From: Vulcanimicrobiota bacterium
Lineage (GTDB): Bacteria > Vulcanimicrobiota > Xenobia > Xenobiales > JADMJV01
Assembly: GCA_050250895.1 (NCBI GenBank)
Contig: JBFWNU010000001.1
Location: forward strand, 2,278,210-2,342,209
Length of the DNA stretch: 64,000 nucleotides
Direction of reading: 5' to 3'
The first letter of the stretch is position 1. Each line of letters starts with the position of its first letter. A model generated the notes under the pieces. The model was given only the letters and a program-made list of their open reading frames with translations. It had not been told where the DNA came from and did not search any database. The translations under genes and the position numbers were made by a program. Below are positions 1,517 to 64,000 of the stretch, piece by piece.

Positions 1517-2617
1517 ATGGATTTTTTTAGGAAGCTATTCTCTAAGGCGCCTGAGTTGGGCGCTATCGACATTGGCAGCAACATGATCAAGGTTGCCATC
1601 GTCAACGAGAAGAAGGGCGCCCCACCCGAGCTTTATCGCTATGCCCAATGCGCCACGCCGCCAATGACCATCAAAGATGGCTCCATTGTCGACGCTCAGC
1701 TGCTGGGTGAAACGATAGCAGGCCTGCTCGCTTCGAGCGACATCCAGGTCGGCAAGTTGGTGTCGGCTGTGGCCGGTCAGCAGGTCGTGATTCGTCCGAT
1801 CCAGATGACCAAGATGAAGCAGTCCGAGGTCAACCAGGCTATCAAGTTCGAGGCCGAGCGCTATCTACCATACTCGGTGACTGATGCCTCGGTGTCGGGA
1901 ATGATTATCAACGAGCATGTCGACGAGCGCAGTATGGAAGTGCTGTTGATCGCCGTACCCAACGAGATCGTCGCCAACGCGCGCGAGGTGGTCAAGATGG
2001 CCGAAGTCGAGCCCGGCCCCATCGATCTCGAACCCCTGGCCCTGTTCCGTTCACTCAAGCATTGTGTGAGCGACGAGCAGATGGCGGGGACGCTGGCCTT
2101 GATTAATCTCGGCGCGAGCTTCAGTAGTATCAATATTTTCCGCCAACGGGTCCTGCGCCATAACCGGACGATTTCCATCGCGGGCAACTCGTTCACCAAG
2201 GCGATCGGACAATCTCTCAATCTTTCTTTCGAAGAAGCCGAAAAGATCAAGAAAGAGAAGGGTGTCATCCGGGTCGAGAACAACGCCGACCCGGTGCCGC
2301 CCACGACGATGAGAATTTTCAATCTCATCGTTCCCGTCTTGACCGAGCTGGTGACCGAAATCCAGCGCTCGTTCGACTACTACCGTTCGCGCTACAAGGA
2401 CGGAGCGGTCGACCTGGTGATTCTCTCGGGCGGCACCGCAAAATTCAAGAATATTGACCAGTTTCTGGCCAACGAACTCGGCGTCAAAGCCGAGATCGCC
2501 AATCCCTTTCGAGGGATTAATGCCCAGAAAGTGCCTGGTCTCTCTCAGGCCGACCTGGCTGATATCGCGCCCAATGCTATGGTTGCTCTGGGCTTGGCCC
2601 TGAGGGAGGCTCAGTGA
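1517..2617 (+). CDS. pilM: Type IV pilus assembly ATPase-fold protein PilM
   Basis: Actin-like fold motifs (IDIGSNMIKVA…, LSGGTAKF), 366 aa; GGGAGGGGG RBS 8 nt upstream of the ATG. Confidence 0.85.
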   Translation: MDFFRKLFSKAPELGAIDIGSNMIKVAIVNEKKGAPPELYRYAQCATPPMTIKDGSIVDAQLLGETIAGLLASSDIQVGKLVSAVAGQQVVIRPIQMTKMKQSEVNQAIKFEAERYLPYSVTDASVSGMIINEHVDERSMEVLLIAVPNEIVANAREVVKMAEVEPGPIDLEPLALFRSLKHCVSDEQMAGTLALINLGASFSSINIFRQRVLRHNRTISIAGNSFTKAIGQSLNLSFEEAEKIKKEKGVIRVENNADPVPPTTMRIFNLIVPVLTELVTEIQRSFDYYRSRYKDGAVDLVILSGGTAKFKNIDQFLANELGVKAEIANPFRGINAQKVPGLSQADLADIAPNAMVALGLALREAQ

Positions 2618-2936
2618 AGAAGAACCTGCAAATTCGTGGTGAGACCACCTATAAAGAAGGTGGGGAGGAATTCACCCGTTTCACTAGAAAGTGCAGTCTT
2701 CTTGATCTTGAATTAGATTGTCGAATTGGAAATACCGAAGGAATCGCTCTGCAGCGAGGGCAGGTCCGGATCGGAGGGTGGTGATGGTGACATCGTGATA
2801 AACACTCTCCGGGGCGGATGTCTCTCAGGCTTAGGGTCTGGCAGTCTCTCCTCGAAGTTATCGCGGTTCGACCGCGAGACGCAATTCATTATCGGTATTA
2901 GACTACGAAAATTGACTAGGGAGGTGGGTTTGACTT

Positions 2937-5066: not shown

Positions 5067-5404
5067 GGGATGGCCTTCTCGGGGCAGGCTAGAATGCTCT
5101 TCATTATACCATCCGCTGGTTTGGCTTGCAGGATCGCTTGACTTGGGAACCGAACCAAGTTCAACGACTTGAAGTTTAGTTCACGCGCGCCTGGAAAGCG
5201 ACCGTGAGTAGAACGGGCCACGACAATAGAGATAGGTCCGTGTGGCTGCTCTAGAATCAGCGTCGCGAACTGAAGAGCTACACAGTACGGGTTGGTACAA
5301 CTTGATCTCATTCGAAGGTAGGGCCTTTCACGGTCCAGCTATCCTAGTATTGTCCGACAACATTGTTCAGGGCTCCGTTATGTCCCATGGAAGGAGGTCC
5401 CACA

Positions 5405-8400: not shown

Positions 8401-11400
8401 AGCCAGCGACCTGTTCAGCCAGCCCGCAGCCCCGGCCGGGGACCTGTTCAGCCAGCCCGCGGCTCCGGCCGGCGACCTGTTCAGCCAGCCCGCCGCTCCG
8501 GCCGCCGACCTGTTCAGCCAGCCCGCGGCTCCGGCCGGCGACCTGTTCAGCCAGCCCGCCGCTCCCTCGAGCGACCCTTTCTCTCAGCCCGCCGCCAGCG
8601 ATGACCCGTTCAGTCCGGCACCTGCGTCGGCTGAGTCCGCCGAAGCGCCGGCCAGCGACCTGTTCAGTCAGAGCCCGGCCCCGGCTGGAGATCTGTTCAG
8701 TCAGACCCCTGCGCCGGCGGCCGGTGACCTCTTCGGGCAGTCTTCGGCTCCGGCGGCCGACCTGTTCAGCCAGACCCCGGCAGGTGACCTGTTCAGCCAG
8801 GCACCGGCCAACGAGCCTTTCAGCCCGGCCCCCGAGCCCGACCCGGCTCCGGCCGCAGACCTGTTCAGCCAGGCCCCGGCCGGCGACCTGTTTTCGGCTG
8901 CTCCCGTCGAGGCGCCCTCCTCGGGTCTGTTCGAACAGCCCGCCGGCGGTGACCTGTTCTCGGCTGCGCCTGCGCCGGCCCCAGTCGAGCAACCGGTGGC
9001 CAGCGAGCCCGCCCCCGCCGGGGGATTGTTTGACGAGCCTGCCCCCGAGGCCCGGTCCGAGCTGTTCAGCCCTGCTCCCGAGACCGCTCCGGCCAGCGAG
9101 GCGGCGGAAGAACTCTTCTCGCCGACCACGCCCGAAGCCCCGGCCGAAGCCGCTGCGGGCGGTTTGTTCGACGAGCCCGCCCCGGCTGCGGGTGGCTTGT
9201 TCGACCCTGCTCCCGCCGCTGGACTGTTCAGTGAGGCGACCGGTTCGTCCCAAGATAAGAAGGCGGCCGTGTCGGCGGCCTTCGAGCGCTTCCGCAAAGA
9301 CAAGCCCGGCGGCGGCTCGCAGGAGCCGGTGCCCGGAGAGGAAGAGCCCAGGCTCTCGAGCGAGATCGTGCTGCCCCCGCGTCCGCAGGACTCGCCAGAC
9401 TTCCTGCAGGCTCTTGAAGCGACCCTGCCGCGCCCGGCCTCGGCCGAGCCCGAGCCCGAGGCTGCTCCACCCAGCGTAGAGTTGGATCTCGAGCCCAGCC
9501 ATGAGTCAGCCGAGGTTCCGGTTGCTCCTCCTGCTCACGAGAGTTTCGAGATCGAAGAGCCGGTGGCCACGGCCGAGCCTGAGGTGGTGGTGCCCGAGGT
9601 GGTGCCCGAACCCGTGCCCGAGCCCGAACCCGAGCCCGAAGTGCTGGGACGACCCACCGTCTCGATGTCGATCGAGGAAGAGTCGCCAGACGAACATGTC
9701 TCCCAGGCCGACGACGTTCGCAACTCCCTGGGTGACTCTGATGTGGCGACCTCGATTAGCGTCTATCGTAAGGCTGTGGAAGAATCTCCCGACAACTTGG
9801 TGTTGCGCACCCGGCTCGCCGACATCCACATGCAGTATGGGCTGCTTGAGGACGCCGTCGTCCAGTATCGCCAGATCATCAAGCGAAACCCCGCTTCCAT
9901 CAGCCTTCGCCACCGCCTGATTCAAGCTCACCTTTGGAACGAGAGTCACGATCAGGCGGCTGCGGCCTTGATGGAGTTGGCCGAACTGCACTCCGAGCAG
10001 GGTAACCACCAGGACGCTCTCGACGCGCTCCAGACGGTGCTCAGTCTCGACCCTCATCACTTCGAGGCTCGCAAGCGTCTGGTCGACCGGTTCACGGCTC
10101 TCGATGAGGCCAAACTGGCCGCCCACCACTTGCGTCAATTGGCCGAGGCGGCCCTCACGAAGGGCAACGTGGAAGAAGCCATCAGCGCCTTCAAGCAGTT
10201 GATGGAGATCTCCGACGATCCCAGTTTCCAGGACCGGCTGGCCCAGGTCTACGAGAGCCAGGGAGACAACCAGCAGGCGTTGCTCCACTATCGTCAACTG
10301 GTGGCGCGCTACCAGAGCGAAGAGAAGTGGGAAGAGGCAGCTGCCGCCACCGAGCGTATCGCCGAGCTCGACCCCGAAGCGGTCGAGACCCGCACCGGTC
10401 TCATCGACCTCTACCAAAAGCTGGGTCTGACCGACAAGGTGATCGAGCAACAATTCGAGCTGGCTCGCTATCACCAGGTGCGCGACGAGTTACCTGAGGC
10501 GATTGCGCTCTACGAGCGAGTCGTGGCGGCGCGACCGCAGAAATACGATGCCCGCCGCCTACTGGTCGACGCCTATCTCGATTCCGGCAAGGTGCCGGCG
10601 GCGCTGCAGCAGTCCGAGGCGCTCACGGAGCACTATCTGACCACCAAAGACCACACCACCGCCATCGAACTTTACAGGCGATTGGTGGAGGCCGACTCCG
10701 AGAACGTCGAGCTACGCGAACGCCTGATCAAGTTCTACAACATGGCCGAAGACTCGACCAACGCCATGGAGCAGCTGCTGATCCTGGCTGGTCTGCACCG
10801 CGCCAACGAGCGCTACTCGCAGGCGGTGGATTGTTATCGCAGGGCGCTCGAACTTGACGAGTCGCGAGTTGACTTGCATTACGAACTGGCTCAGATCCAT
10901 GTCGACCACCTCGACGACCTCGAGTCGGCGATGCGGCAGTTCCGCCGGGTCTACGAGCTGGCCCCCACCAACCTCGAGGCCATGGAACGCTACATTCGCA
11001 TGCTGCTCGACGCCGGCAGCGCGGGCGAGGCGGGCGAGGTGCTCAATAAACTGGTCGAATCCAGTGACTCGGGCGACCAGGTTCGCGAAGCGCTTCTCTC
11101 CGAACTCAAAGCCAAGATCGAGCGCGACCCCGCCGACATGTCGGCCCGTTTCAACTATGGTGAGCTGTGCTTCCACCTGGGCGAACTTGACCTGGGTATC
11201 GAGCAGTTCCAGCAGACGCGCCGTGACCCGGCTTTCGAACTCAAGTCGTACAACATGTTAGGTCTATGCTTTGCCGAGAAGACCGGCTTCAATATGCTGG
11301 ACCTGGCCATCAAGCAGTTCCGCAAAGGTCTCGAGACCCGCGGTCACTCCGACCAGGATTATCTCGAACTCAAATACAACCTGGCGATGCTTCAGTATCG

Positions 11401-11533
11401 CAACGGAAGGCTCCAGGAGTCGCTTCAGGAGCTGAAGGATTGCTACGCCGTAGACATCGCCTTTAAGGACGTGCGCGAATGGGTGCGTCGAATCGAGGCG
11501 GAGATTGCGGGAGGGCCCCGCTTCCCGCGATAA
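5405..11533 (+). CDS. Giant TPR-repeat protein (2042 aa) with a ~1000-aa disordered PEPE / ΦLF-repeat core
   Basis: GGAAGGAGG RBS before ATG 5405 (the track ORF starts at 5363). N-terminal TPR of ~330 aa. Central low-complexity region (~nt 6410-9700) holds (EP)n tracts and about 45 DLFS/GLFD repeats. C-terminal TPR solenoid of ~600 aa. The C-terminal module is shared with the next gene. Confidence 0.85.
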   Translation: MADAVALLSDAQRSYTTGDWDQAIDAYKKALEADPNNREACEKMAKVYAIRGMYKSVISTYYQLIDILESSDDLNGALEVADWVMALKPDSAEARAKRILVFQKKGDTEEVVRQSRGLARLYIELGEGDKSIQLLQQAQKADPDNLDIGLELAEMYVSHGHIQDGANQYRKVANAFQDQGNLERAAEAYKRMKVIVSDDPGVLLTLGRLYVDLRRYNEAEQEFRSILRHNLSHEEALLELGRVCQLKGQFRDAILAFNKILSINPDVVMAKEKLGELYKAQGLVPEAIKNFLAAAQAYLEIDEKDKAIHLYQIVLGLDTSNATACRELTNLGAPLIGIEPEPEPEPEPVPEPVAQAEPEPEFEPEPEFEPEPEPEVAVMQPPPAPAPAAGGGRANGFASSEPAMAGPPRAPRAGLTPPDSPRPGLTTPESPRPGLTAPDAADSPKRGLVRRGGDASGGLRPGLRGPGGPGGPGGKPTLGLRDHSGPLRKGLEREGGVGDKPMLMRKPMLERRSPADEKPTLSRNEAPRPTPEPISAREPEPTEFEPLEPLEPLEPLEAVEPPAISPPPALPPLEPEPEPEPEFDEPMAEVEHAEEADFDGEEDESGEERGGLGQSLLGSRQERPSLRGGGLLGAGPRLGIKPGPSLGKPKLGGLGGLRSTKPEGRPGGLLRPGQPTGRIEDDEQGAEESASFDNPEEVNGLFSQMRDRAKPAEAPTPSSELMSPEGGLFDGERSESDSLFGEPAPAGGLFDSPAPSPAQDLFGEPEPAGGGLFDSPAQTDKDDLFGSSPASSGGLFDSPAEPAGGLFDTSPASRAADSLFGEPPAPSAPSNDLFSEPAPAATASNEDLFSSPPASEPAGLFESPEPAPADSLFSSAPRNEEPPSLFDSRPVDESSLEPPSAEPVAQDGSDPFGSSHDLFDQPPPADADGLFGGQATQSDLFDQPAPVADDLFSAPAEAPAADLFSSAPAPASDLFSQPAAPVEEPAAPSNDPFHQSAAPASDLFSQPAAPAGDLFSQPAAPAGDLFSQPAAPAADLFSQPAAPAGDLFSQPAAPSSDPFSQPAASDDPFSPAPASAESAEAPASDLFSQSPAPAGDLFSQTPAPAAGDLFGQSSAPAADLFSQTPAGDLFSQAPANEPFSPAPEPDPAPAADLFSQAPAGDLFSAAPVEAPSSGLFEQPAGGDLFSAAPAPAPVEQPVASEPAPAGGLFDEPAPEARSELFSPAPETAPASEAAEELFSPTTPEAPAEAAAGGLFDEPAPAAGGLFDPAPAAGLFSEATGSSQDKKAAVSAAFERFRKDKPGGGSQEPVPGEEEPRLSSEIVLPPRPQDSPDFLQALEATLPRPASAEPEPEAAPPSVELDLEPSHESAEVPVAPPAHESFEIEEPVATAEPEVVVPEVVPEPVPEPEPEPEVLGRPTVSMSIEEESPDEHVSQADDVRNSLGDSDVATSISVYRKAVEESPDNLVLRTRLADIHMQYGLLEDAVVQYRQIIKRNPASISLRHRLIQAHLWNESHDQAAAALMELAELHSEQGNHQDALDALQTVLSLDPHHFEARKRLVDRFTALDEAKLAAHHLRQLAEAALTKGNVEEAISAFKQLMEISDDPSFQDRLAQVYESQGDNQQALLHYRQLVARYQSEEKWEEAAAATERIAELDPEAVETRTGLIDLYQKLGLTDKVIEQQFELARYHQVRDELPEAIALYERVVAARPQKYDARRLLVDAYLDSGKVPAALQQSEALTEHYLTTKDHTTAIELYRRLVEADSENVELRERLIKFYNMAEDSTNAMEQLLILAGLHRANERYSQAVDCYRRALELDESRVDLHYELAQIHVDHLDDLESAMRQFRRVYELAPTNLEAMERYIRMLLDAGSAGEAGEVLNKLVESSDSGDQVREALLSELKAKIERDPADMSARFNYGELCFHLGELDLGIEQFQQTRRDPAFELKSYNMLGLCFAEKTGFNMLDLAIKQFRKGLETRGHSDQDYLELKYNLAMLQYRNGRLQESLQELKDCYAVDIAFKDVREWVRRIEAEIAGGPRFPR

Positions 11534-31079: not shown

Positions 31080-32575
31080 GCCGGCGCCACGGAGGGATAT
31101 TGGGTTTAGGGCGTGACCGGGTCGACTTGACCCTGATTTGCCTGCGTTTGGCCGTGCTCGTTCTGACGGCGGCCAAGAGTCTGGGGGGTAAAGCCAGCGA
31201 GGACCAGTGGGACCCGCGCGTGGTCGGGGCGGTGGCCGTCATCTATCTCTTGCTCTCGATGTCGGTCGAATTGCTGGTCAACAAGCGTTGGAAAACCAGC
31301 GCTCTGGCCGCCTCGGATCTGGTGGTGGGTTCGTTGCTTTATGCTTTCCATCCCGATGCCACCCTGTCGTTCTTGCCGGCCCTGGGTGTAGTCGAAGCCT
31401 TTCGCACCAACCCGGCCTTCGGCGGGGGGGCGGCCGCCGTGGCGCTGCTCTTGCTAGCTCAGCTCGGCTCGCTCTCGCACGGCGGAACGGATTGGGTGCT
31501 CGGTCACCTGGTGGTGCAGGTCGCCGTGGTTTCGTTTGCCAGCGGGGCGGGCTTTTTGGCCTGGAGTCTTCAGCGCGTGTCCGGACCGGCCGGCACTTTC
31601 GAGCACCTGCTCTCGACCACACTCTTTCCGGCCCGAGCTTCGGTGGAGGAAGTGATCGAGCGAGTGCTCGACCTGATGGATCCGCTCTTCGGAGCCGAGC
31701 GGGCGGTCGTCTATCTGCACCACGAGGACGACGACAAACCGGCCCGGATGCGCGCCGTCGGCAAGCAGAGCGAGGGCTTTGAGGACTTTCAGCTCGACCA
31801 GCGCAGCTCGGTGCTGGTGAGCGTGTTAAACGATCGGGAAGGACGCTTGTTAGGGCCGGTGACCAAAGGCACCGAGCAGGTCATTCCCGAGGGATTGCTC
31901 GGCTCGGGAATGGTGGCGCCGCTGATCGTCGAAGGACGCCCCGTCGGGGCCTGCCTGATTACTCACGCCGCCCCCGAGAAGTATCGAGCATCTGACCTTG
32001 AGCGATTTAAGTTGGTAGCCACCCAGCTGGCCACTAGCCTGGGTCGCATCGAATTGCAGCAACCAGGAGGGGGCTTGGCCAAAAACGACGCCGTTACCGG
32101 ACTTTTCACCCACGCATACTTTCAAGACCATCTGGGCCGGGCTATTTCCAAGGCCAAATATCAGAATGGCACGGTGGCTCTGATGATTCTCAATGTGGAT
32201 TTCTTCAAGCGGGTCAACGACCGCTACGGTCACAGCCAGGGCGACTCCCTGCTGCGCCAGGTGGCCGGGGTAGTGCGCTCGACGGTGCGACCCGAGGACA
32301 CCGTCTGTCGCTTCGGACCCGACACGTTTTCGGTCACCATGCCTGACACCAATCGCGCCAACGGCGCTATCGCCGGCGAGAGACTGCGCCAGGCCATCGA
32401 GCAGAACGAATTCGTGGTCGGCAACGAAATCATCGCCCTCACGATCTCGGCGGGAGTGGCCGCCTTTCCTGAAGACGTCGAGACCAAGAAAGAGTTGATC
32501 GACAAAGCCGAAGAGGCTCGCTTCGAGGCCACTCAGCGGGGCCGCAACAAGGTCTGCTCGGCCGGAGATTCGTGA
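31049..32575 (+). CDS. Membrane GAF-GGDEF protein with degenerate active site (RFGPDTF)
   Basis: Several N-terminal TM helices, GAF-like middle. GGDEF fold motifs (LMILNVDFFKRVND…GHSQGD) but GG(D/E)EF is replaced by GPDTF, with RPED just upstream. Start uncertain (31049-31130). Confidence 0.75.
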   Translation: MEEPPAQLCLSRRHGGILGLGRDRVDLTLICLRLAVLVLTAAKSLGGKASEDQWDPRVVGAVAVIYLLLSMSVELLVNKRWKTSALAASDLVVGSLLYAFHPDATLSFLPALGVVEAFRTNPAFGGGAAAVALLLLAQLGSLSHGGTDWVLGHLVVQVAVVSFASGAGFLAWSLQRVSGPAGTFEHLLSTTLFPARASVEEVIERVLDLMDPLFGAERAVVYLHHEDDDKPARMRAVGKQSEGFEDFQLDQRSSVLVSVLNDREGRLLGPVTKGTEQVIPEGLLGSGMVAPLIVEGRPVGACLITHAAPEKYRASDLERFKLVATQLATSLGRIELQQPGGGLAKNDAVTGLFTHAYFQDHLGRAISKAKYQNGTVALMILNVDFFKRVNDRYGHSQGDSLLRQVAGVVRSTVRPEDTVCRFGPDTFSVTMPDTNRANGAIAGERLRQAIEQNEFVVGNEIIALTISAGVAAFPEDVETKKELIDKAEEARFEATQRGRNKVCSAGDS

Positions 32576-35553
32576 CCAGCAACGTCCAAGAGCGGCGTTC
32601 GGCCGCCGAGCGCGCCTCGATGGCTTCGAGTCTGGCCGAGATCTGCTCGGGCCTCACCGACGAGCAGCTCGAGGCTGTCCGGCATGGTTCGGGGCCGCTT
32701 TTGATCGTGGCCGGTGCGGGCACCGGTAAGACGACCGTGGTCACCCGCCGGATCGCCTATCTGATCGCCTCGGGATTAGCTCAACCTTCGGAAGTGCTGG
32801 CCCTGACCTTCACCGAGAAGGCGGCGGCCGAGATGCAGGAGCGCGTGGATGTGCTGTTGCCCTACGGCTATGCCGACATCCAGATCTCGACCTTTCATTC
32901 CTTTGGCGACCGCCTGTTGCGTCAGAACGCCCTCGAGATAGGCTTGAGCCCCGACTTCAAGGTCCTTTCTGGCCCCGAGCAGGTGCTGTTCTTGCGCGAC
33001 AACCTGTTTCGCTTGCCGCTGGAGCGCTATCGCCCTCCCGGCAATCCCACCGGCCACCTGCAAGCCCTCGTCTCCCATTTCGGCAAGGCCAAGGATGAGG
33101 ACCGGGCCCCGGCCGAGTATGTGCGCTTTGCCGAGGCGCTGGTCGAGGCCGCTGGCGACGAGCCCGAGGCCCGCGACCGGGCCGAGTCGCAACTCGAGTT
33201 GGCCCGCTGCTACCACACCTATCAGAAACTGATGACCGAGCAAGGTTATCTCGACTTTGGCGACCAGGTGTGGCTGGTGCTCGAACTTTTGCGGCAACGC
33301 CCGGCTCTGCTCGAACGACTGCGCCAGCGCTATCGGTTCGTGCTGGTCGACGAGTTTCAAGACACCAACTATGCCCAGTTTGCCCTGGTCAAGATGCTGG
33401 CGGGCGAGGCTCCCAATCTGACCGTGGTGGGCGATGACGACCAGTCGATCTATCAGTTTCGCGGCGCCGCCCTGGGCAACATCCTCGAGTTCACCGAGGT
33501 CTATCCTCAGGCCCACCAGGTAGTGCTGCGCACCAACTTCCGTTCCACCCAAACCGTGCTCGACTCGGCTTACAAGTCGATCGTGCACAACAACCCCGAG
33601 CGCCTCGAGGTGCGCAACGGCATCGACAAGCGTCTGGTGTCGGATCGCAGCCAGAAGAGCACCGAATCCGATTCCGAGATTGAATACACCTCGTTTGACC
33701 TGGTGTCGTCCGAGGCCGAGGCGGTGGCCGAACGCATCGCCGAGCTGGTCGAAAAACAAGGCCACGCCTATTCGGATTGCGCGATTCTGGTGCGGGTCAA
33801 CCGCGAGGCCGACCCTTACCTGCGGGCCCTCAACATGAAGGGCATCCCGTTCCGGTTTACCGGCAATCGCGGCCTCTACTCCCGGCCCGAGATTCGCTTC
33901 GTGACCTCGTTCTTGCGTTCGCTTTGCGACCCCACCGACAGTATCAGCCACTTCCACCTGGCCTCTCACGAGCTATTCGCCTTTCCTCGTTTGTCGCTGG
34001 TGTTGCTCTCGAGTTATGCCAACCGCCGCAACCTGCCCCTGCGCCGGGTCTTCGAACTGCACGGGCTAGCTCTCGAGCCCAGCGACGAAACCCTCGACAT
34101 CGACCTGCCCAGCCGCGAGGCCATCGATGGTTTTCTCAACTGTCTCGAGCAGTATCTCGAGCGCATCGCCGACGAAACTCCGGGTCGCATCCTCTATCGC
34201 TTCGTGACCGAGACGGGCTGGCTAGAACAGCTGACCCGGGGCCAGCAAGAGGGCGAGATCGCCATCCAGAATCTGGCTCGCTTCTTCGAGATTATCAAGA
34301 ACTTCGAGACCCTCTATCCGGGTGCCCAACTGCCCCAGTTCGTGCGCCATCTCGACTTGCTCATCGAAGCCGGCGACTCGCCGGCCGTGGTCGAGGCCGA
34401 TGCCGGCACCGAAGCCGTCGAGGTACTGACGGTCCACAAATCCAAGGGGCTCGAGTTTCCGGCTGTCTTTCTGGTGGGTCTCTCCGAAGGGCGCTTTCCC
34501 ACCCGCGAGCGCGTCGCCGCCCTCGAGTTTCCGGCCGAGTTGATGCGCGACCCCGAGGCGGGCAGCGCCGAGCGCCACGTGCAAGAAGAGCGGCGCCTGT
34601 TCTATGTGGCCGTGACCCGGGCCAAAGAGTGGCTCTGGCTGTCGAGTTCTTTTGATGCCGGCCAGGGCCGCGCTCAAAAGGTCAGCCGCTTCGTGCTCGA
34701 GGCGCTGGATCGTCCCCGGGTGGATCTGGCCGTGGTGCGCACCTCTTCGCTCGAAACCCTCAATCGCTTTGCGCCCCAGCCGGTGGCCGAACAGGGCTGG
34801 GCCAAGATGCACCCGGATCGGATGCTGACGCTATCCTTTCGCAAGATCGATGACTATCTCACCTGCCCCCAGAAGTATAAGTTCGTGCAGGTGCTGCGGG
34901 TGCCCATCTTGCCGCACCACTCGGTGGTCTATGGCAACGCCCTTCACAGCGCGGTTTCGCTCTGCCTCGAGGGCAAGATGAAAGGCGAGATGCCTGCCTT
35001 CGAGGACCTCGAGGCCGAGTTCAAGCGAGCCTGGACAGGTGAGGGTTTTCTCACCCTCGAGCACGAGCAGCAACGCTTCCAGGCCGGCCTGACCGCCCTG
35101 CAGAGTTTCTACGACCACGAGCTAGAGCAAGAGTTGGTGCCGCTGCACGTCGAGAAAGACTTCGCTTTCACGGTGGGCCGCAATAAGGTGATTGGGCGCT
35201 GGGACCGGGTCGACTCGCTGGCCGGCGAAATCATTCTCAGCGACTACAAGTCGGCGGCCGTGGCCAATCAAGAGCAAGCCGACACCCGGGCCCGCGAAAG
35301 CCTGCAACTATCGCTGTACGCCCTGGCCTATCGCCAGCAAGAAGGCGTGCTGCCCCGCGAGGTGCGCCTCATCTTTCTCGAGACCGGCCTGGTGGGCCGC
35401 TCGACCGTCGACAGCGCCCGCCTCAACGATGCCCTCTCGAAAATCCGCCGCGCCGCCGCCGGCATCCGCGCCCGCGACTACACGCCCAAACCGCGGCAAC
35501 GAGTGTGCAGCACCTGCGCCTATCGAGAAATCTGCCCCGCCACCACCAGTTAG
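32572..35553 (+). CDS. UvrD/PcrA-family helicase fused to C-terminal 4-Cys PD-(D/E)XK nuclease (AddA/AdnB-like)
   Basis: GTG start overlaps the upstream TGA (GTGA). Walker A AGAGTGKTT, UvrD motifs. C-terminal ~250 aa with Cys at YLTCPQKY plus CSTCAYREICP (Cas4/AddB-type) and a DYK-like nuclease core. Confidence 0.85.
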   Translation: MTSNVQERRSAAERASMASSLAEICSGLTDEQLEAVRHGSGPLLIVAGAGTGKTTVVTRRIAYLIASGLAQPSEVLALTFTEKAAAEMQERVDVLLPYGYADIQISTFHSFGDRLLRQNALEIGLSPDFKVLSGPEQVLFLRDNLFRLPLERYRPPGNPTGHLQALVSHFGKAKDEDRAPAEYVRFAEALVEAAGDEPEARDRAESQLELARCYHTYQKLMTEQGYLDFGDQVWLVLELLRQRPALLERLRQRYRFVLVDEFQDTNYAQFALVKMLAGEAPNLTVVGDDDQSIYQFRGAALGNILEFTEVYPQAHQVVLRTNFRSTQTVLDSAYKSIVHNNPERLEVRNGIDKRLVSDRSQKSTESDSEIEYTSFDLVSSEAEAVAERIAELVEKQGHAYSDCAILVRVNREADPYLRALNMKGIPFRFTGNRGLYSRPEIRFVTSFLRSLCDPTDSISHFHLASHELFAFPRLSLVLLSSYANRRNLPLRRVFELHGLALEPSDETLDIDLPSREAIDGFLNCLEQYLERIADETPGRILYRFVTETGWLEQLTRGQQEGEIAIQNLARFFEIIKNFETLYPGAQLPQFVRHLDLLIEAGDSPAVVEADAGTEAVEVLTVHKSKGLEFPAVFLVGLSEGRFPTRERVAALEFPAELMRDPEAGSAERHVQEERRLFYVAVTRAKEWLWLSSSFDAGQGRAQKVSRFVLEALDRPRVDLAVVRTSSLETLNRFAPQPVAEQGWAKMHPDRMLTLSFRKIDDYLTCPQKYKFVQVLRVPILPHHSVVYGNALHSAVSLCLEGKMKGEMPAFEDLEAEFKRAWTGEGFLTLEHEQQRFQAGLTALQSFYDHELEQELVPLHVEKDFAFTVGRNKVIGRWDRVDSLAGEIILSDYKSAAVANQEQADTRARESLQLSLYALAYRQQEGVLPREVRLIFLETGLVGRSTVDSARLNDALSKIRRAAAGIRARDYTPKPRQRVCSTCAYREICPATTS

Positions 35554-35772
35554 GGAGCGCGTCGCTTCGCTCCGCGTGAGAAGGAGCGCGTCGCTTCGCT
35601 CGCGGGAAAAGGAGCGGCCCTGGGGGCCGGGAGAAGAAGCGAACTGAGCGACAGCTCAGTTCGAGAGCGGCTGCGCCGACATCTCCGCGCGAAGCGCCCG
35701 GCTCCTTTCCCCGCGTAGCGGCTCCCTGTCGGCCGCAGGCCGAAGTCTCGGCGGCGCAGCCGTCGCTCCCTG

Positions 35773-45680: not shown

Positions 45681-46229
45681 GTGAGTTTGAACAGGGGATT
45701 GAGTGCCGCGCTCTTGGCTGGAATGCTGTTTCTAGCTGGTTGCGCGCCCGCAGCGCCCGTGCACCCCAGTGCCGACAAAGGCGGGCCCGACACGCCTCTG
45801 CCGAAGAAGACCCCGGTCGAGGTGGCCTCTTCGGACCAGGGTGATTCGAACGGCGGCCCCGCTGCCACCGGCCCCATGGCCGAAGATCTGGCCAACGCCG
45901 ATGGCATGGCTGGCTTCGAAGAGGTGATGAAGATGACCGCGCCGTCTGCCAGCAACCTGGATACGGGGAAGAATCTCTTTGCTCAGAACTGTGCGACCTG
46001 CCACGGCGCCTCGGGTAAAGGAGACGGTAAGGCCGGCGCAGCGCTCGACCCACCGCCCCGCAACCTGACTGTCCCCGGCGAATACAAGTACGGCCACATG
46101 GAGCTGGCCACTTTTCGGACTATCAAGTACGGCGTCGAGGGCTCTGGCATGACCGGTTGGGACGGTCGCATGACCGACGACGAGACGTGGGCGGTTGTCC
46201 ACTACGTCATGAGCCTCCAGAAAGGATAA
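45681..46229 (+). CDS. Lipoprotein c-type cytochrome (class I)
   Basis: GTG with GAAGGAG RBS, lipobox LAGC, CATCH heme site, GMTGW Met-ligand region. Confidence 0.85.
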   Translation: MSLNRGLSAALLAGMLFLAGCAPAAPVHPSADKGGPDTPLPKKTPVEVASSDQGDSNGGPAATGPMAEDLANADGMAGFEEVMKMTAPSASNLDTGKNLFAQNCATCHGASGKGDGKAGAALDPPPRNLTVPGEYKYGHMELATFRTIKYGVEGSGMTGWDGRMTDDETWAVVHYVMSLQKG

Positions 46230-46241
46230 GGAAGATACACA

Positions 46242-46808
46242 ATGCGAAATCATCGCGTTACCACCTGGCTCGGTTTGCTCGTGGCCTCTCAGTTGTTTCT
46301 GACCGGCTGCCCGTCTACCCCGCCCAGCGAAACACCCACTACTCCAGCCCCGGCTACCACTGCAGCCCCGGCTGAAACCCCTCCCGCGGAAGGAGCCAAG
46401 ACCCTGCCCGAGGCACAGGTCGTGGCTGCCGACATGGAGAAGGCCAAAGAAGACTTCTCTGCTGCCGAAGGCACCACCGGTGCCGAGGAAGTGGCGGCCT
46501 TGACCGAGATTCCGGCCGCTTCGGCCGAGACCGTGGCCAAAGGCAAAGAGCTCTTCCAGACCAACTGCACCACCTGCCACGGCGACGACGCGGCGGGTAA
46601 CGGCCCGGCCGGCGCTGCGCTTGACCCGCCGCCCCGCAACCTGACCTTGCCCGGCGAGTACAAGTACGGCCATCTCGATTTGGCTGTGTACCGTACCGTC
46701 AAGTACGGTTCTGATGGCACCGGAATGGTCGGCTGGGACGGCCGCATGTCCGAAGACGAAATGTGGGCCGTGGTCCACTACGTCCGGGGGATTCAGAAAG
46801 AGGGCTAA
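46242..46808 (+). CDS. Lipoprotein c-type cytochrome (class I), tandem paralog
   Basis: Lipobox LTGC, CTTCH, GMVGW. Same domain layout as the preceding gene, with a Pro/Thr/Ala-rich linker. Confidence 0.85.
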   Translation: MRNHRVTTWLGLLVASQLFLTGCPSTPPSETPTTPAPATTAAPAETPPAEGAKTLPEAQVVAADMEKAKEDFSAAEGTTGAEEVAALTEIPAASAETVAKGKELFQTNCTTCHGDDAAGNGPAGAALDPPPRNLTLPGEYKYGHLDLAVYRTVKYGSDGTGMVGWDGRMSEDEMWAVVHYVRGIQKEG

Positions 46809-46816
46809 GCTCCGCC

Positions 46817-49741
46817 TTGCAAAAGCTGCTTGAACTGCGGCAAAGCCTGGCTCACGACTTGGAGAAGGCGGTCGAGGGAGAAATCCGACTCGACCCCTTC
46901 TCCAAAACGTTGTACGCCACTGACGCCAGCATTTATCAGATCGAGCCTCTGGGGGTGGTCGTGCCGCGCCGCCCCGAAGACCTGCTGGCCATCGTCGAGG
47001 TGGCCCGCCGTCACCAGGTGCCCCTGATGGGCCGAGGCGGCGGCACTTCGTTGGCCGGCCAGACGGTCACGGCCGGGCTGTGTGTGGACTTCTCGAAGTA
47101 TCTTGGCCGCACCGAGCAGTTCAACCCTGAGCAACGTTGGGTCGAGGTGCAGCCGGGCAAGGTGCTGGCCGACCTCAATCGCGAGGTCGGCGTCCACGGC
47201 TTGATGTTTGCGCCCGACCCGGCCACTTCAGAACACGCCTGTGTGGGCGGAGTGGTGGCCAACAATTCCTCGGGCATGCGCTCGATCGTCTACGGCAAGA
47301 CCGTCAACCACGTGCTGGGTCTGACCGTCCTGACCTCTGACGGCCAGACGCTGCAACTGGGCGAACTCGATCGCGAGGGACTCGAGGGCAAGCTGGCTCA
47401 ATCCGATCGCGAGGGCGAACTTTACCGAGCCCTGGTCAGCCTGGTCAAGAACAACGCCGAGTTGCTGGTCGAGCGCTATCCCAAGATTTTGCGACGGGTG
47501 TCGGGCTACAACCTCGACGAGTTATTGCGCGGGCTCAGGGCCATTGGCTATGAAGTGCCCGAGTGGACCGGCCTGCAGGCCCCGGCCGCGCGGGTTCCTC
47601 AGGGATTCTCACTGGCTCCGCTGGTGGTGGGTTCTGAAGGTAGTCTGGCTCTGATCACGCGGGCTCGGCTCCATCTAGTCGAAGTGCCTGAAGCGCGCGG
47701 CCTGCTGGTGAGTCATTATTCGGGCCTGCGCGAGGCGCTCGAGGGCAACGCCGCCGTGCTCGAACTCGAGCCCTCGGCCAGCGAACTGCTCGACGAGATG
47801 GTGCTGGGGTTGGCCCGCCAACAGCTCGAGATCGGGCGGCTCATGGATTTTCTCCAAGGCGACCCAAAAGCGGTGGTGGTGGCCGAGTTCTCCGGCACCC
47901 CTCAACAGGTCAAGAAGGCCCTCCAGCGGGCGGCCGCTCACCTCAAGAAGAAGAAGCTGGGTTATGCCCATCTCGAAGTGGCCGACCCGGCCGGCATGGA
48001 CCGAGTCTGGCGGGTGCGCAAAGCCGGCCTTCCGCTCTTGCTGGGCCTCAAGGGCGATCGCAAGCCCATCGCTTTTATCGAAGACACCGCCGTGGCCCCC
48101 GAACGCCTGGTCGAGTATGTGGACCGCTTCGACGAGATCGTACGCTCCGAGGATACGACCGCCGCCTACTATGCCCACGCCAGCGTGGGTTGCCTGCATA
48201 TCCGACCGCTGCTCGATCTTAAAGACCAGGGCGACCTCGATCGCATGCAGCGGCTGTCCGAGCGGATTTCGGACCTGGTGGTCGAGTTCGGCGGCTCGAT
48301 GTCGGGCGAGCATGGCGACGGTCTGGCTCGAGGATTGTGGAATCGCAAGCAGTTCGGAGATACCGTCTATGAGTTGTTTCGCGAGGTCAAGCGGATCTTC
48401 GACCCCGAGAACATGATGAATCCGGGCAAAGTGGTGGACTCGCCGGCTATGACCGGCAACCTGCGATTGGGCACCAGCGTGCCTCGGCGCGTGGACCGAG
48501 CCCACCTCGACTGGAGCCGTGAAGGTGGCCTGTTGGAGGCGGTCGAGCTGTGCAACGGCTCGGGGGTCTGTCGCAAGACCAACCGCGGCACCATGTGCCC
48601 GTCTTATCAGGTGACCCGCGAAGAAGAGCACTCGACCCGAGGTCGCTCCAACCTGTTGCGGGCCGCCCTCAGCGGCCGGCTGCCCCAGGAAGCACGCACC
48701 AGCAAGCGCATGTATGAAGCGTTCGACCTGTGCCTCGAGTGCAAGGGGTGCAAAGCCGAGTGCCCTTCGGGAGTAGACGTGGCCAAGATGAAGTTCGAGT
48801 TTCTGGCCGGCTATTACCAGGCTAACGGGGTGCCCCTGCGCTCGCGCATGTTCGCCCACGGAAGGCTGCTCAACCAGCTGGGTTGCGCGGTGGCGCCGCT
48901 GGCGAACTGGGTGGCCGAGAGCGCGCTGTGGCCACCCCTGGCTCACGCTCTGGGCATCGCCACTCAGCGCCGCTTGCCGCGCTTTGCCCCGCGCACGTTC
49001 TTTCACTGGTGGAAGCAGCGCGTCCCTCGCCAGGGCCGGCCGGTGGCCTTGTTCGTCGACAGCTTTGCCGCTTATAACGAGCCCCATCTGGCCCGGGCGG
49101 CCGTACTGGTGCTCGAGCGCCTGGGCTATGCGGTCGAGTTGGCCGAGCCGGTCTGTTGCGGTCGCACCTTCATCTCGAAGGGTTTGGTCGAGCCAGCTCG
49201 TCGGCTGGCCCAGCGCAACTTCGCCTCGCTGCGGTCGCTGTGGCAGCGAGGTGTGCCGGTCGTGGGTATCGAGCCGTCTTGCATCCTAGCCCCTCGCGAC
49301 GACTACGCAGACTTGATCGGGGCCCAGGACCTCAAACCGGTGGGGGCCAACTGCTTCACCCTGGAGGAGTTTCTGGCCGATCACCAGCTCGAGGTCGACT
49401 TCACTACCAACATGCTCTTGCACGGCCATTGCCATCAGAAAGCTCTGGTGGGAACGGGCCCGAGCCTGTCGCTGTTGGGGCGCCTGGGCCAGGTCCGGGA
49501 GATCGATTCGGGCTGCTGCGGCATGGCCGGCTCCTTTGGCTATGAGGCCGAGCACTACGAGATTTCCCGGGCCATCGGTGAGCGCCGGCTGTTGCCGGCC
49601 GTGCGCGAGCATACCGCCGGCGGAGGCGTGGTGGTGGCGGCCGGCACCTCGTGTCGCCAGCAGATTCGGCACTTCACGGGCCAGCGAGCGCTGCATCCCA
49701 TCGAGGTGGTGGCCCGCGCCCTGGGGGTCAGCGATGAGTAA
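46817..49741 (+). CDS. FAD-linked oxidase fused to 4Fe-4S/CCG domains (YdiJ/GlcD-GlcF-like)
   Basis: FAD_binding_4 ([11 protein letters not shown]), FAD-oxidase_C, ferredoxin-type [12 protein letters not shown], two CCG-type Cys clusters (VCCGRTF…, [12 protein letters not shown]). The start (TTG ~46817) is uncertain because the track ORF overlaps the upstream stop. Confidence 0.85.
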
Positions 49742-60887: not shown

Positions 60888-61754
60888 ATGCCGAAGCTGT
60901 GGATCTTTCTGCCGGCCTTCAACGAGGAGCAGGCCCTGCCCAATCTCTTGCCCCGCATCGACGAGACCATGCGCGAGCACGGCTATGATTACGAGATGGT
61001 GGTGGTCGACGACGGCAGCAACGACAACACCCCGGCCATCCTGGCCGAGTTCGAGGGCAAGCTGCCGCTGCAGGTGGTGCGCCACGTGCTCAATCGCGGC
61101 CTGGGCGAGACCGAGCGCGACGGATTCGAGCATGTGGCCATGCAGTGCCACCCCGACGACATCGTGGTGCGGGTCGAAGGCGACGACACCCACGGCCCCC
61201 AGTACATCCTCGACCTCTTGGCCAAGCTCGAGCAGGGCTATGACGTGGTCAACACCTCGCGCTTTCAGCCCGGCGGCGGCCAGCGCGGGGTCAGCGCCTA
61301 TCGCGGCTTCATCAGCCGGGCGGCCAACATGTTCATGGGCTTCGTGTTTCGCATCCCCGGCACCCGTGACTACAGCTGTGGCTTTCGCGCCTACCGCGGC
61401 AAAGTGCTAAAAGACGCCGTGCGGGTCTTCGGCAACAACTTCATCCAGCTGCGCGGGCTGGGCTTCACCTCGACCTTGGAGACCATCGTCAAGTTGCACC
61501 TGCTCGGCTGCCGCTTCGCCGAGGTGCCTTTCATGCTGCGCTACGACCTCAAACTGGGCCCCAGCAAGATGGTCTCGAGCGTGACCACCGTCGGCTATCT
61601 CTTGATGGGCCTGCTCTACTGGTGGCCGTTTGGCGGCTGGCTCGACCAATACCGCGGCCTGGCCGAGGCTTATCGTGAAGACCCCGAAGCGGCCGTACGG
61701 CGCTTCGAGGGGCGGGCGCTGCCGGCGCCTACGGCGGGTAAGCTGGCGCCTTAG
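60888..61754 (+). CDS. Family-2 glycosyltransferase (polyprenyl-phosphate sugar transferase-like)
   Basis: IFLPAFNEE…VVVDDGSNDNT…  DxD-type GT2 motifs. Internal ATG 60888 (the track ORF starts at 60804). Confidence 0.85.
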   Translation: MPKLWIFLPAFNEEQALPNLLPRIDETMREHGYDYEMVVVDDGSNDNTPAILAEFEGKLPLQVVRHVLNRGLGETERDGFEHVAMQCHPDDIVVRVEGDDTHGPQYILDLLAKLEQGYDVVNTSRFQPGGGQRGVSAYRGFISRAANMFMGFVFRIPGTRDYSCGFRAYRGKVLKDAVRVFGNNFIQLRGLGFTSTLETIVKLHLLGCRFAEVPFMLRYDLKLGPSKMVSSVTTVGYLLMGLLYWWPFGGWLDQYRGLAEAYREDPEAAVRRFEGRALPAPTAGKLAP

Positions 61755-63530
61755 TCCTGGCTTGGTGGGCGCTTTTAGGTCACCGCGGAGATCCGCGGGG
61801 CGCGCGGAGTTGGGTGCATTTGAGTCGGATGGAGCACGCTCTGGCGTTGAGGCCCGGAGAGGGCTGTGCGGGGTGGGGCCTGGGCGGGAGGTCGCGGTTG
61901 TGCGCCGTACACTCGCCGAACCGGGTCGTGCGGCGCACACTTGCGCCGCACATCGACGAAACCCGGCTGTACGGCGCACATTCGGCGGGTCCAGCGTTCG
62001 GCGAGCCGAGGTTTAGTCGAGGTTGCCCGCCGAGAGACGCTTCAGGAACCCTTTTGGCTTCGGGATTTCGCCCACTCCGGGTGGGGCCAAGGCTGGCCGG
62101 GCGGTCGGGGCTGGCGATCGCCCACTCCGGCCGGGGCTGGCGATCGCCCACTCCGGCTGGGGGATTTCGCCCACTCCGGGTGGGGCCAGGATGGCTGGGC
62201 GGCCCGGGCTGGCGATCGCCCACTCCGGCTGGGGGATTTCGCCCACTCCGGGTGGGGCCAGGATGGCTGGGCGGCCCGGGCTGGCGATCGCCCACTCCAG
62301 CTGGGGGATTTCGCCCACTCCGGGTGGGGCCAAGGCTGGCCGGGCGGCCGGGGCTGGCGATCGCCCACTCCGGCTGGGGGATTTCGCCCACTCCGGGTGG
62401 GGCCAAGGCTGGCCGGACGGCCGAGAGCTGGCCGCTGCCCACCCCGCCGCGCCTACGGCGGGTAAGCTGGCGCCCTAGCCCTGGCTTGGTGGGCGCTTTT
62501 TAGGTCACCGCGGAGATACGCGGGGCGCGCGGAGTTGGGTGCATTTGAGTCGGATGGAGCACGCTCTGGCGTTGAGGCCCGGAGAGGGCTGTGCGGGTGG
62601 GGGCCTGGGCGGGCGGTCGCGGTTGTGCGCCGTACACTCGCCGAACCGGGTCGTGCGGCGCACACTTGCGCCGCACATCGACGAAACCCGGCTGTACGGC
62701 GCACATTCGGCGGGTCCAGCGTTCGGCGAGCCGAGGTTTAGTCGAGGTTGCCCGCCGAGCTTCAGGAACTCTTCTGCCTTCGGGATTTCGCCCACTCCGG
62801 GTGGGGCCAAGGCTGGGCGGACGGCTGGGGCTGGCGCTCGCCCCCTCCGGCTGGGGGATTTCGCCCACTCCGGGTGGGGCCAAGGCTGGGCGGACGGCTG
62901 GGGCTGGCGATCGCCCACTCCAGCTGGGGGATTTCGCCCACTCCGGGTGGGGCCAAGGCTGGCCGGGCGGCCGGGGCTGGCGATCGCCCACTCCGGCTGG
63001 GGGATTTCGCGCACTCCGGGTGGGGCCAGGATGGCTGGGCGGCCCGGGCTGGCGATCGCCCACTCCGGCTGGGGGATTTCGCCCACTCCGGGTGGGGCCA
63101 AGGCTGGGCGGGCGGTCGGGGCTGGCGATCGCCCACTCCGGCTGGGGGACCACTCCGGGTGGGGCCAAGGCTGGGCGGACGGCTGAGAGCTGGCCGCTGC
63201 CCACCCCGCCGCGCCTACGGCGGGTAAGCTGGCGCCCTAGTCCTGGCTTGGTGGGCGCTTTTTAGGTCACCGCGGAGATACGCGGGGCGCGCGGAGTTGG
63301 GTGCATTTGAGTCGGATGGAGCACGCTCTGGCGTTGAGGCCCGGAGAGGGCTGTGCGGGGTGGGGCCTGGGCGGGCGGTCGCGGTTGTGCGCCGTACACT
63401 CGCCGAACCGGGTCGTGCGGCGCACACTTGCGCCGCACATCGACGAAACCCGGCTGTACGGCGCACATTCGGCGGGTCCAGCGTTCGGCGAGCCGAGGTT
63501 TAGTCGAGGTTGCCCGCCGAGAGACGCTCC
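61727..63530. repeat. Tandem triplication (~723 + ~762 + ~320 bp partial) containing nested inverted repeats and arrays of a 72-bp mini-repeat with GCGATCGC cores
   Basis: The last ~27 nt of the GT gene (gcgcctacggcgggtaagctggcgccYtag) recur at ~61727, ~62450 and ~63212. Each copy carries a hairpin-rich ~300-bp unique part and about 5 tandem 72-bp units (gggatttcgcccactccgggtggggcc…ggctggcgatcgcccactccggctgg). Confidence 0.85.
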
Positions 63531-64000
63531 AGGAACTCTTCTGGCGAGTTGACTTCGGCCGCGGCGACGATGGCCGAAGAGAGCTGGGTGTCGTCTTTTA
63601 GCGCCTCGATGGCTTTTCGAAGGTCGGGTGGAGTTGGTCCAAATCGCTTCTCGAGAATCTTGAAGACTGATTCGCGCATTGCCTGACGGCCCTGTTCGAG
63701 CCCCTCTTCCCGACCTTGCTCCAGACCGAGTTCGCGACCTTGCTCCAGACCGAGTTCGCGACCCTGCTCCAGGCCAAGTTCACGACCTTGCTCGAGGCCC
63801 TGTTCAAGCCCTCGCTCGAACCAGCTGTTGGTGACTTTCATGACTGCCTCCCTTTCTTGAGGAGCGATACTCTCTATTTCGGCGGAGAATTCTTGTTCTT
63901 CCTGCGGATTGAGTCGTAGGTATTGTTCTACGAAGTGGGCTACGTAGAAAGAGCGAGCTTTGTCGAGATTGAGGTTGGCTAGGAGCCTCAGACAGGCCAG
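63500..64000 (-). CDS. Rpn-family / DUF4351-like protein, C-terminal part (5' end outside the window)
   Basis: The minus-strand frame is open from the window edge to a stop at ~63500 (…LLANLNLDKARSFYVAHFVEQYLRLNPQEEQEFSAEIESIAPQEREAVMKVTNSWFERGLEQGLEQGRELGLEQGRELG…). The listed 113-aa ORF is only its tail from an internal Met. Confidence 0.55.
   Translation of the reverse strand: MACLRLLANLNLDKARSFYVAHFVEQYLRLNPQEEQEFSAEIESIAPQEREAVMKVTNSWFERGLEQGLEQGRELGLEQGRELGLEQGRELGLEQGREEGLEQGRQAMRESVFKILEKRFGPTPPDLRKAIEALKDDTQLSSAIVAAAEVNSPEEFLERLSAGNLD

Follow-up and report, generated by a model that had tools for sequence, protein, structure and literature searches.

What is the repetitive stretch that separates two convergent genes in the 64-kb window (that is, the whole 64,000-nt stretch of DNA that was analysed): a set of genes, a functional RNA or cis-acting element, an error of assembly, or a by-product of recombination? 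On its left lies a GT2 glycosyltransferase (GT) gene on the plus strand (60888-61754, called start ATG 60888; Pfam PF00535, E 1.3e-20), the exact 288-aa product of which is on record from Vulcanimicrobiota (NCBI MGE4201143.1). On its right, on the minus strand, lies the 3' part of an Rpn-family (YhgA-like) nuclease gene (63500-64000), which leaves the window and has a full product of 342 aa (P0243, equated with NCBI MGE4201144.1 and named there 'Rpn family recombination-promoting nuclease/putative transposase'). The N-terminal PD-(D/E)XK YhgA-like domain of this product was recognised by PF04754 with 26.2 bits against a cut-off of 21; TIGR01784 (43.2, cut-off 52.1) and DUF4351 (17-19 bits, cut-off 25) scored below their cut-offs. 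Exact-product look-ups returned no record for a TTG-start form of the GT, a 234-aa ORF of the repeats, a 113-aa RpnS-like ORF or full-length P0243. The closest relatives of the GT in GTDB representatives were 54-66% identical (Longimicrobium, Anaerolineae and others) and were useless for synteny.

Alignment of the copies showed that a segment of about 330 bp, designated A, is present three times in direct tandem at 95-98% identity, with start-to-start spacings of 725 and 762 bp (repeat family D3), in agreement with the first-pass annotation, which had claimed a tandem triplication of a ~740-bp segment. In 333 aligned columns, differences numbered 8 between A1 and A3, 10 between A2 and A3, and 16 between A1 and A2. 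Each copy starts with the last ~28 nt of the GT2 gene and its stop codon, continues with a spacer and finishes with the end of the Rpn-family gene, its 3' edge matching, in reverse complement, the final ~15 codons (~45 nt) of that convergent gene; the presence of both gene ends bears out the earlier proposal that the unit arose by duplication across a gene end. The true 3' end of the GT gene lies in A1 (61727-62058), and A3 (63214-63545) is continuous with the real Rpn gene. The copies are thus head to tail and include gene ends, with intact genes at the outer edges only, as in a tandem segmental duplication. The Rpn remnant in A1 (62013-62058, minus strand, ending in GFLKRLSAGNLD and a stop codon; ORF list and alignment) is intact, with K replacing E as in the relative P0001, but that in A2 (62452-62778) is broken by a 5-nt deletion after 62758, so that the C-terminal remnant previously reported from copies 1 and 2 holds for copy 1 only. 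With this deletion and with substitutions in the gene remnants, the remnants within the A copies are decaying.

The interior of A contains a block of ~187 bp (61814-62000 in A1, also in A2 and A3), which by inspection has no TIR or TSD at its ends, is found in the window only as the three copies inside A, and had no match in the public sets. Alignment showed it to be absent from two short-spacer relatives. A long imperfect palindrome made of a 41-nt unit repeated twice was located by TRF, folding and core count at 61899-61980, with further copies at 62624-62705 and 63386-63467; its 24-nt core occurs exactly three times. The palindrome folds with z = -5.1 on the plus strand and -4.9 on the minus strand, and the whole of A folds better than its own shuffles (z = -4.5). 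Hairpins are present, but the previous description of ~300 bp of hairpin-rich sequence was overstated, each copy having one strong palindromic hairpin of ~80 nt and one small CCGCGG hairpin. Local alignment also revealed a degenerate minirepeat-like stretch on the plus strand (61871-61905).

Between adjacent copies of A lie two minirepeat arrays, delimited by TRF and unit alignment: B1 (62059-62451), with units of 99, 72, 72 and 73 nt and a diverged terminal unit (5 units), and B2 (62779-63213), with units of 73, 73, 73, 72 and 67 nt and a diverged terminal unit (6 units). TRF reported a period of 72/73 with 4.2 and 5.6 copies and 91-95% matches, and the 23-nt core of the minirepeat occurs 10 times here, compared with 0.01 expected by chance. 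Unit number differs between the arrays, as the first-pass annotation had stated, and so does unit order. Its picture of about five in-frame 72-bp repeats was right as to an array of units but not as to their uniformity, since lengths range from 67 to 99 nt and the units are not uniformly in frame; its further argument, that 72 nt equal 24 codons and so keep every frame open, fails because some units measure 73, 99 or 67 nt, the frames being open since the unit itself is free of stop codons in all six. Head-to-tail units far beyond chance, in a structure that is polymorphic between related genomes, are what defines a minisatellite or VNTR.

This polymorphism was seen in related lineages. In two of them, from different assemblies (L012 and L013; GT gene ~93% and RpnS ~88% identical to those of the window), the same two gene ends are 62 bp apart, and the 187-bp block, the duplication and the minirepeat are all missing. 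In a third (L014; DRR438474), the GT gene of which is 93.8% identical, 66 nt are deleted from the spacer, and the minirepeat joins window position 61876 directly, through a GGGG(T/C)TGG microhomology, at the same point as the degenerate stretch within A. The earlier proviso that the minirepeat might occur only here, with no variation, is thus contradicted by a different junction in L014 and by loci with no minirepeat in L012 and L013. Relatives with the same genes have a plain spacer, so that the whole A and B structure appears to be dispensable. In this comparison, which has no outgroup, a gain in the window and L014 and a loss in L012 and L013 fit equally. The A copies within the locus (95-98%) are also more alike than are the orthologous genes across lineages (~93%).

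The anatomy of the locus, its absence from relatives, its lack of coding or RNA signals and its structural polymorphism make it rather likely that we are dealing with a neutral nested tandem duplication/VNTR between convergent GT2 and Rpn-family genes, generated by illegitimate recombination, slippage and unequal crossing-over. The repeat stretch is probably non-coding, functionless and hypervariable, and most likely represents a by-product of recombination, not a gene, an RNA or a HIP1 feature. As for how and in what order this came about, we infer that the spacer may first have acquired or retained the ~187-bp block, containing the long palindrome and one minirepeat proto-unit, and that an illegitimate tandem duplication at short homologies would then have copied a stretch with the final ~28 nt of the GT gene at one edge and the final ~45-90 nt of the Rpn gene at the other. 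Neither gene would have been damaged, since the first copy retains the true end of GT and the last copy that of Rpn. The 72/73-bp unit, composed of 46-nt and 26-nt sub-repeats, may subsequently have expanded at the junction through slipped-strand mispairing, and the third copy of A may stem from unequal crossing-over between the existing ones. Gene conversion, together with turnover of units, would hold the A copies at ~95-98% identity while the arrays drift apart.

One alternative concerns the cause of these events and is compatible with the neutral duplication/VNTR explanation. Breaks made by the adjacent RpnL endonuclease, or RecA-independent recombination that it promotes near its own gene, could have seeded the duplication of the 3' end of that gene and the later rearrangements; we consider such a hot spot unlikely, although the adjacent Rpn nuclease may have favoured the duplication. 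Situated immediately downstream of a YhgA/Rpn-family gene, the duplication takes in the 3' end of that gene, which also has hallmarks of an RpnS: a putative internal start, ATG 63841, preceded by a GGGAGG Shine-Dalgarno sequence, and, beginning ~11 residues past this Met, LEQG-type repeats, found by TRF as an intragenic 24-bp (LEQGRELG) repeat on the minus strand (63707-63817) that differs by one 8-aa unit between this gene and its relative P0001. Partial duplicates have been described downstream of rpn genes, and RpnL has been speculated to initiate such recombination (Zhong et al. 2023, PMC10400941), which has been put forward as the origin both of the rpnSs copies found downstream and of 12-nt repeat expansions in E. 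coli; hypervariable 4-aa repeats, in the RpnS module 8-20 residues after the Met, have been described in RpnL and RpnS, a feature that the intragenic repeat of the present gene matches, and the source of Rpn-family duplication and repeat variation is an open question (PMC10400941). This support is, however, purely associative. Three other Rpn-family loci (L015-L017) have no downstream gene-tail duplication and no intergenic arrays, L012 and L013 have the same rpn gene next to a plain spacer, and the duplicated piece covers 15-30 codons, much less than an RpnS would need, with no DUF4351 match in the ORFs of the region. In an extended form, which strikes us as quite unlikely, the locus would be a frozen intermediate of rearrangement driven by the Rpn nuclease, in which RpnL breaks at or near its own 3' end seed microhomology-mediated duplications that elsewhere mature into downstream rpnS antitoxin copies and drive repeat-number variation. 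If this were true, the three structural alleles in ~93%-identical lineages would constitute a natural test system for diversity made by Rpn at its own loci.

It is improbable that the triplication or its copy numbers are an artefact or an error of the assembler, or of strain variants threaded into one path. Short-read and de Bruijn assemblies do break at the repeat locus, a second NCBI assembly has non-adjacent accessions for the same GT and Rpn proteins, and the exact numbers of A and B units are those of a single contig in a single assembly. However, the copies differ by specific substitutions and indels and the arrays by the order of their units, unlike the products of mechanical over-expansion; the source contig, at 3.95 Mb, suggests a long-read assembly; and L014, an independent lineage, has the minirepeat at the same locus. 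Independent support for a real repeat came from a k=31 Logan contig of run SRR27751816, which has an identical GT gene, passes four variants specific to copy 1 and stops exactly 31 nt from the last of them, as expected where differently flanked copies converge. This contig is unbranched from the unique GT gene, indicating that other copies with different left flanks are present in the reads and arguing against a strain bubble. The three-fold tandem duplication with its two arrays is thus confirmed as real.

A functional cis-element or non-coding RNA, for example, a barrier or terminator between the convergent units, a set of protein-binding iterons, or a structured RNA, is very improbable. The position between convergent genes would suit a barrier or terminator, a G4-like motif occurs in each unit on the plus strand (13 of the 21 such motifs in the window fall in the repeat region), and the hairpin is very stable. 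On the other hand, L012 and L013 have these genes but not the structure, and the minirepeat itself folds no better than shuffles (z = -1.2 and -2.0). The palindrome scores equally on both strands, which suggests symmetry of the DNA rather than an RNA under selection. No Rfam family was recognised, a sensitive scan of 61-64 kb (E<=10) giving only hairpin matches at chance level and a gathering-threshold scan of the whole window nothing real. No tRNA or tmRNA gene was found, and no site resembling a promoter was detected, nor any resembling an intrinsic terminator within 61700-63600.

That the ORFs of 100-234 aa on both strands of the repeat region are real genes, encoding Pro/Gly-rich repeat proteins or degenerate minus-strand RpnS-like proteins ending in FLKRLSAGNLD (the ORF at 62013-62333 does end with the 11 C-terminal residues of Rpn), is hardly credible, since all six frames are open merely because the unit is stop-free, the 73-, 99- and 67-nt units shift the reading frame, and the ORFs are absent from relatives and have no Pfam domain (DUF4351 included), no homologue in a chimeric six-frame query of 5.8 billion proteins, and only two matches, unrelated and of low complexity, in a HMMER search of 1.84 billion representatives. 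In addition, the NCBI accessions of the GT and Rpn proteins are consecutive, and therefore nothing is annotated between the two genes; the earlier dismissal of these ORFs as repeat artefacts was correct.

The arrays also contain the octamer GCGATCGC, identical to the HIP1 element (highly iterated palindrome) of cyanobacteria, which had been said to be present in every mini-repeat. It occurs in nine sub-units but is missing from the terminal units and is replaced by GCGCTCGC in one other. Of its 12 occurrences in the window, 9 are inside the arrays and the 3 outside, in ~62 kb, compare with 3.5 +/- 1.8 expected, so there is no over-representation outside the arrays. The GT and Rpn proteins, moreover, are identical to proteins of an NCBI Vulcanimicrobiota MAG, the host being a member of that phylum. 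The proposed link to HIP1 was accordingly discarded: the likeness is coincidental, the octamer having been amplified as part of the repeat unit, and an assignment to the cyanobacteria, a tempting but wrong taxonomic inference, is here corrected.

The locus belongs to a known kind of feature, and its value is mainly practical. The mycobacterial MIRU-VNTR loci of Supply et al. are reportedly intergenic minisatellites. Like them, the present arrays consist of head-to-tail units of tens of bp, are intergenic and abut gene ends, vary in unit length and number between lineages, and presumably arise by slipped-strand mispairing and unequal recombination. Unlike them, the present arrays are nested in a ~740-bp tandem duplication with pieces of both flanking genes, and their unit was not seen dispersed: the 23-mer core had no further copy in the 64-kb window and no match in GTDB representative genomes or JGI metagenomes. 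In their nested periods (26 and 46 nt, 72/73 nt, and 725/762 bp), they resemble the higher-order repeats (HOR) of satellites and microhomology-mediated tandem duplications in bacteria, but on a very small scale, with three large units at one locus. They share with rpnSs duplicates such as ypaA after rpnE (PMC10400941) the copying of the 3' part of an Rpn-family gene directly downstream and an architecture of internal start and variable repeat, but here only the last ~15-30 codons were copied (with clear identity over ~15), no whole RpnS or DUF4351 is present, the copies are decaying and non-coding, and the duplication also comprises a minisatellite and the tail of the adjacent GT gene. For annotation, the repeat ORFs, open in six frames, should not be entered as genes, and the locus should be recognised as one that breaks short-read assemblies; it may also serve as a strain-typing (VNTR) marker for this uncultured Vulcanimicrobiota lineage. 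The one broader angle, by association only, is that it adjoins the 3' end of a toxin-antitoxin/defence gene of the Rpn family.

Other kinds of repeat and other sources were also considered. A CRISPR array was rejected because the entire 72/73-nt period repeats, with no unique spacers, and the sole Rfam CRISPR match was sub-threshold and located elsewhere; the template and variable repeats of a DGR were rejected because the gene-tail copy is ~45 nt and by inspection has no adenine-specific differences. A blastn search of A1 and B1 against plasmids and phages gave no match, nor did a gapped hairpin pattern against viral contigs or a degenerate codon pattern for the Rpn C-terminus against metagenome contigs. 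An origin of the minirepeat in Rpn or GT coding sequence is not favoured by free local alignment, which was not significant. The minirepeat is significantly similar to the interior of A at 61871-61905 (local score 35, reached by none of 500 shuffles). When compared in register, the first array unit and the real Rpn coding sequence are identical at 23 of 45 positions (P about 0.0025), a value reached by 1.1% of slid registers, and this likeness may be regarded as suggestive.

We found that a segment of about 330 bp is present three times in direct orientation, as copies A1 (61727-62058), A2 (62452-62778) and A3 (63214-63545), where a GT2 glycosyltransferase (GT) gene (60888-61754, plus strand; PF00535, E 1.3e-20) converges on an Rpn-family gene. 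Alignment of the three copies, with start-to-start spacings of 725 and 762 bp (repeat family D3), confirmed the tandem triplication described in the first-pass annotation. In each copy, the 5' part is the last ~28 nt of the GT2 gene, including its TAG stop, the middle is a spacer of ~258 nt, and the 3' part is the final ~15 codons, reverse-complemented, of the minus-strand Rpn gene, which A3 joins without a break. Since the A unit spans both gene ends and intact genes adjoin only the outermost copies, the proposed duplication across the gene ends is upheld. Mismatches amount to 8 of 333 columns between A1 and A3, 10 between A2 and A3 and 16 between A1 and A2, and the gene remnants are decaying; for example, a 5-nt deletion has destroyed the reading frame of the Rpn remnant in A2. 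A palindrome of ~80 nt at 61899-61980 recurs at +725 and +1487. Public gene calls for the GT gene start at ATG 60888 (288 aa), the sole product form on record; the longest ORF form, from TTG 60804, overlaps a divergent GNAT gene.

The A copies are separated by two arrays of a 72/73-bp unit: B1 (62059-62451; units of 99, 72, 72 and 73 nt, then a diverged terminal unit) and B2 (62779-63213; units of 73, 73, 73, 72 and 67 nt, then a diverged terminal unit), with different orders of unit subtypes. The unit comprises 46-nt and 26-nt sub-repeats with the common motif TCGCCCACTCCGG.TGGGG, the 99-nt unit having one additional 26-nt sub-repeat, and a 23-nt core is found at 10 sites in the region, compared with 0.01 expected from shuffles. 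Each unit bears a G4-like motif on the plus strand, and these motifs, 13 of the window's 21 being in the region, may be put down to the G-richness of the unit. The minirepeat also has significant similarity to a stretch within A (61871-61905), with a score of 35 that none of 500 dinucleotide shuffles attained. Set in register against the Rpn coding sequence, from which it might descend, the first unit is identical at 23 of 45 positions (P about 0.0025), a value equalled by 1.1% of slid registers, and free alignment of the two was not significant.

The first-pass annotation, mostly right on the structure, had linked the octamer GCGATCGC to the cyanobacterial HIP1 palindrome. Nine of its 12 occurrences in the window fall in the arrays, and the three in the ~62 kb beyond match expectation (3.5 ± 1.8); it is not enriched in this genome but amplified only as part of the repeat unit. 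These counts, together with the NCBI entries for the identical GT protein and the neighbouring protein, which belong to a Vulcanimicrobiota (Eremiobacterota/WPS-2) MAG (3,947,236-bp contig), indicate that the resemblance is a coincidence. Equally, 24-codon periodicity does not explain the open frames, since units of 73, 99 and 67 nt occur; all six are open because stop codons are lacking from every frame of the unit. The ORFs were correctly judged to be artefacts: they contain no Pfam domain, a concatenated six-frame translation of A2 and B2 matched none of 5.8 billion proteins, and among 1.84 billion representatives searched exhaustively with HMMER there were only two matches, unrelated and of low complexity. 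The NCBI accessions of the GT and Rpn proteins are consecutive (MGE4201143.1 and MGE4201144.1), which leaves no annotation between their genes.

The comparison covered three contigs from other samples that share the gene pair or the GT gene with the window. GT gene identity was 93.3% between the window and L013, 93.8% between the window and L014, and 93.0% between L013 and L014. In L012 (ENA ERZ27309246) and L013 (ENA ERZ28655706), only 62 bp separate the GT and Rpn stops, neither triplication nor minirepeat is present, and the ~187-bp block at 61814-62000, which holds the palindrome, is absent. L014 (Logan DRR438474) has a third architecture, in which the GT stop is followed by 26 nt matching the window, a 66-nt deletion relative to it, 26 nt identical to 61851-61876 and, directly thereafter, the minirepeat (…GGCGATCGCCCACTCCGGCTGGGGGATTTC), where the contig stops. 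The minirepeat is thus not confined to this genome. Its fusion point in L014 coincides with the minirepeat-like stretch 61871-61905, and the minirepeat is related to sequence within the 187-bp block. Structurally, the locus takes no fewer than three forms among close relatives; it is polymorphic, and in relatives the structure as a whole is dispensable.

The exact copy numbers of A and B come from one assembly, and the triplication might be an artefact of it. A Logan contig (k=31, SRR27751816), whose GT gene is 100% identical to that of the window, runs unbranched from this unique gene across the copy-1-specific variants 61751, 61755, 61772 and 61793 and stops exactly 31 nt past the last, as expected for convergence of paths with different left flanks and not for a strain-level SNP bubble. 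This break, the copy-specific differences among A copies, the unlike unit orders of B1 and B2, the 3.95-Mb source contig and the recurrence of the minirepeat in an independent lineage make an artefact unlikely. The same GT and Rpn proteins have non-adjacent accessions in a second NCBI assembly (MGE0491765.1 and MGE0493600.1), consistent with breakage at the repeat.

As an intergenic VNTR nested within a segmental tandem duplication, the feature adds to a known class, and the locus is most likely a neutral, nested tandem duplication. Short homologies near 61716-61727 and in the Rpn 3' end may have recombined in an illegitimate tandem duplication; slippage would then have expanded the 72/73-nt unit at the junction, and unequal crossing-over could have produced the third A copy. 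Concerted evolution may hold the A copies at 95-98% identity, compared with ~93% for orthologous genes between lineages. Rfam searches found nothing in the whole window at gathering thresholds and, at E<=10 in the region, only chance-level matches, among them plant miRNA hairpins at the palindrome. The search for tRNA and tmRNA genes was negative, and 61700-63600 contained neither a sigma-70-like promoter nor a hairpin-plus-T-tract terminator. On either strand, the palindrome is much more stably folded than shuffled sequence (z = -5.1 and -4.9), which indicates symmetry of the DNA rather than a strand-specific RNA; for two minirepeat units, folding did not surpass that of shuffles (z = -1.2 and -2.0).

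The Rpn-family gene (minus strand, stop at 63500, running off the window; 63500-64000) encodes a 342-aa product, P0243, named 'Rpn family recombination-promoting nuclease/putative transposase' by NCBI, which passes the cut-off for PF04754 (Pfam YhgA-like; 26.2 bits, cut-off 21) and scores under those for TIGR01784 and DUF4351. The RpnL toxin has an intragenic RpnS antitoxin, with hypervariable 4-aa repeats 8-20 residues past the RpnS start (Zhong et al. 2023, PMC10400941). This architecture appears to be matched here by an internal ATG at 63841, with GGGAGG (Shine-Dalgarno sequence) upstream, and by LEQGRELG repeats ~11 residues past the internal Met (24-bp tandem repeat, 63707-63817), of which the relative P0001 has exactly one 8-aa unit fewer. 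Zhong et al. (PMC10400941) also described rpnSs, in which the 3' part of an rpn gene is duplicated downstream, and speculated that RpnL itself starts such recombination and repeat expansions. Although the A copies resemble rpnSs in position, their Rpn remnants are much too short to encode RpnS and downstream gene-tail duplication is absent at three other Rpn-family loci (L015-L017), making Rpn an improbable cause of the duplication, a minority hypothesis. The feature is relevant chiefly to annotation, assembly and strain typing, and only a little as a candidate view of Rpn-associated rearrangement. One of the other loci (L016, ENA ERZ25039597 contig_75498, 1370-4711; Rpn/DUF4351) lies among NTP_transf_2/HEPN pairs near a separate 60-aa DUF4351 gene, a context like that of a defence or TA island.

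Other repeats were observed in the window. A coding 33-bp tandem repeat (>10 copies, 8270-8958; ~11 aa, motif ...GDLFSQPAAPA...; local GC increased to 0.69) lies within a 2056-aa ORF (5363-11533, plus strand). Directly 3' of the stop of ORF 32572-35553, a 29-nt unit (GGAGCGCGTCGCTTCGCTCCGCGGGAAAA) repeated 2.2 times (35554-35616) resembles a hairpin or terminator that has been duplicated. In addition, a 201-nt direct repeat (46024-46224 and 46600-46800; 76% identity, 576 bp apart) falls in the region of ORFs 45732-46778 (minus strand) and 46763-49741 (plus strand).
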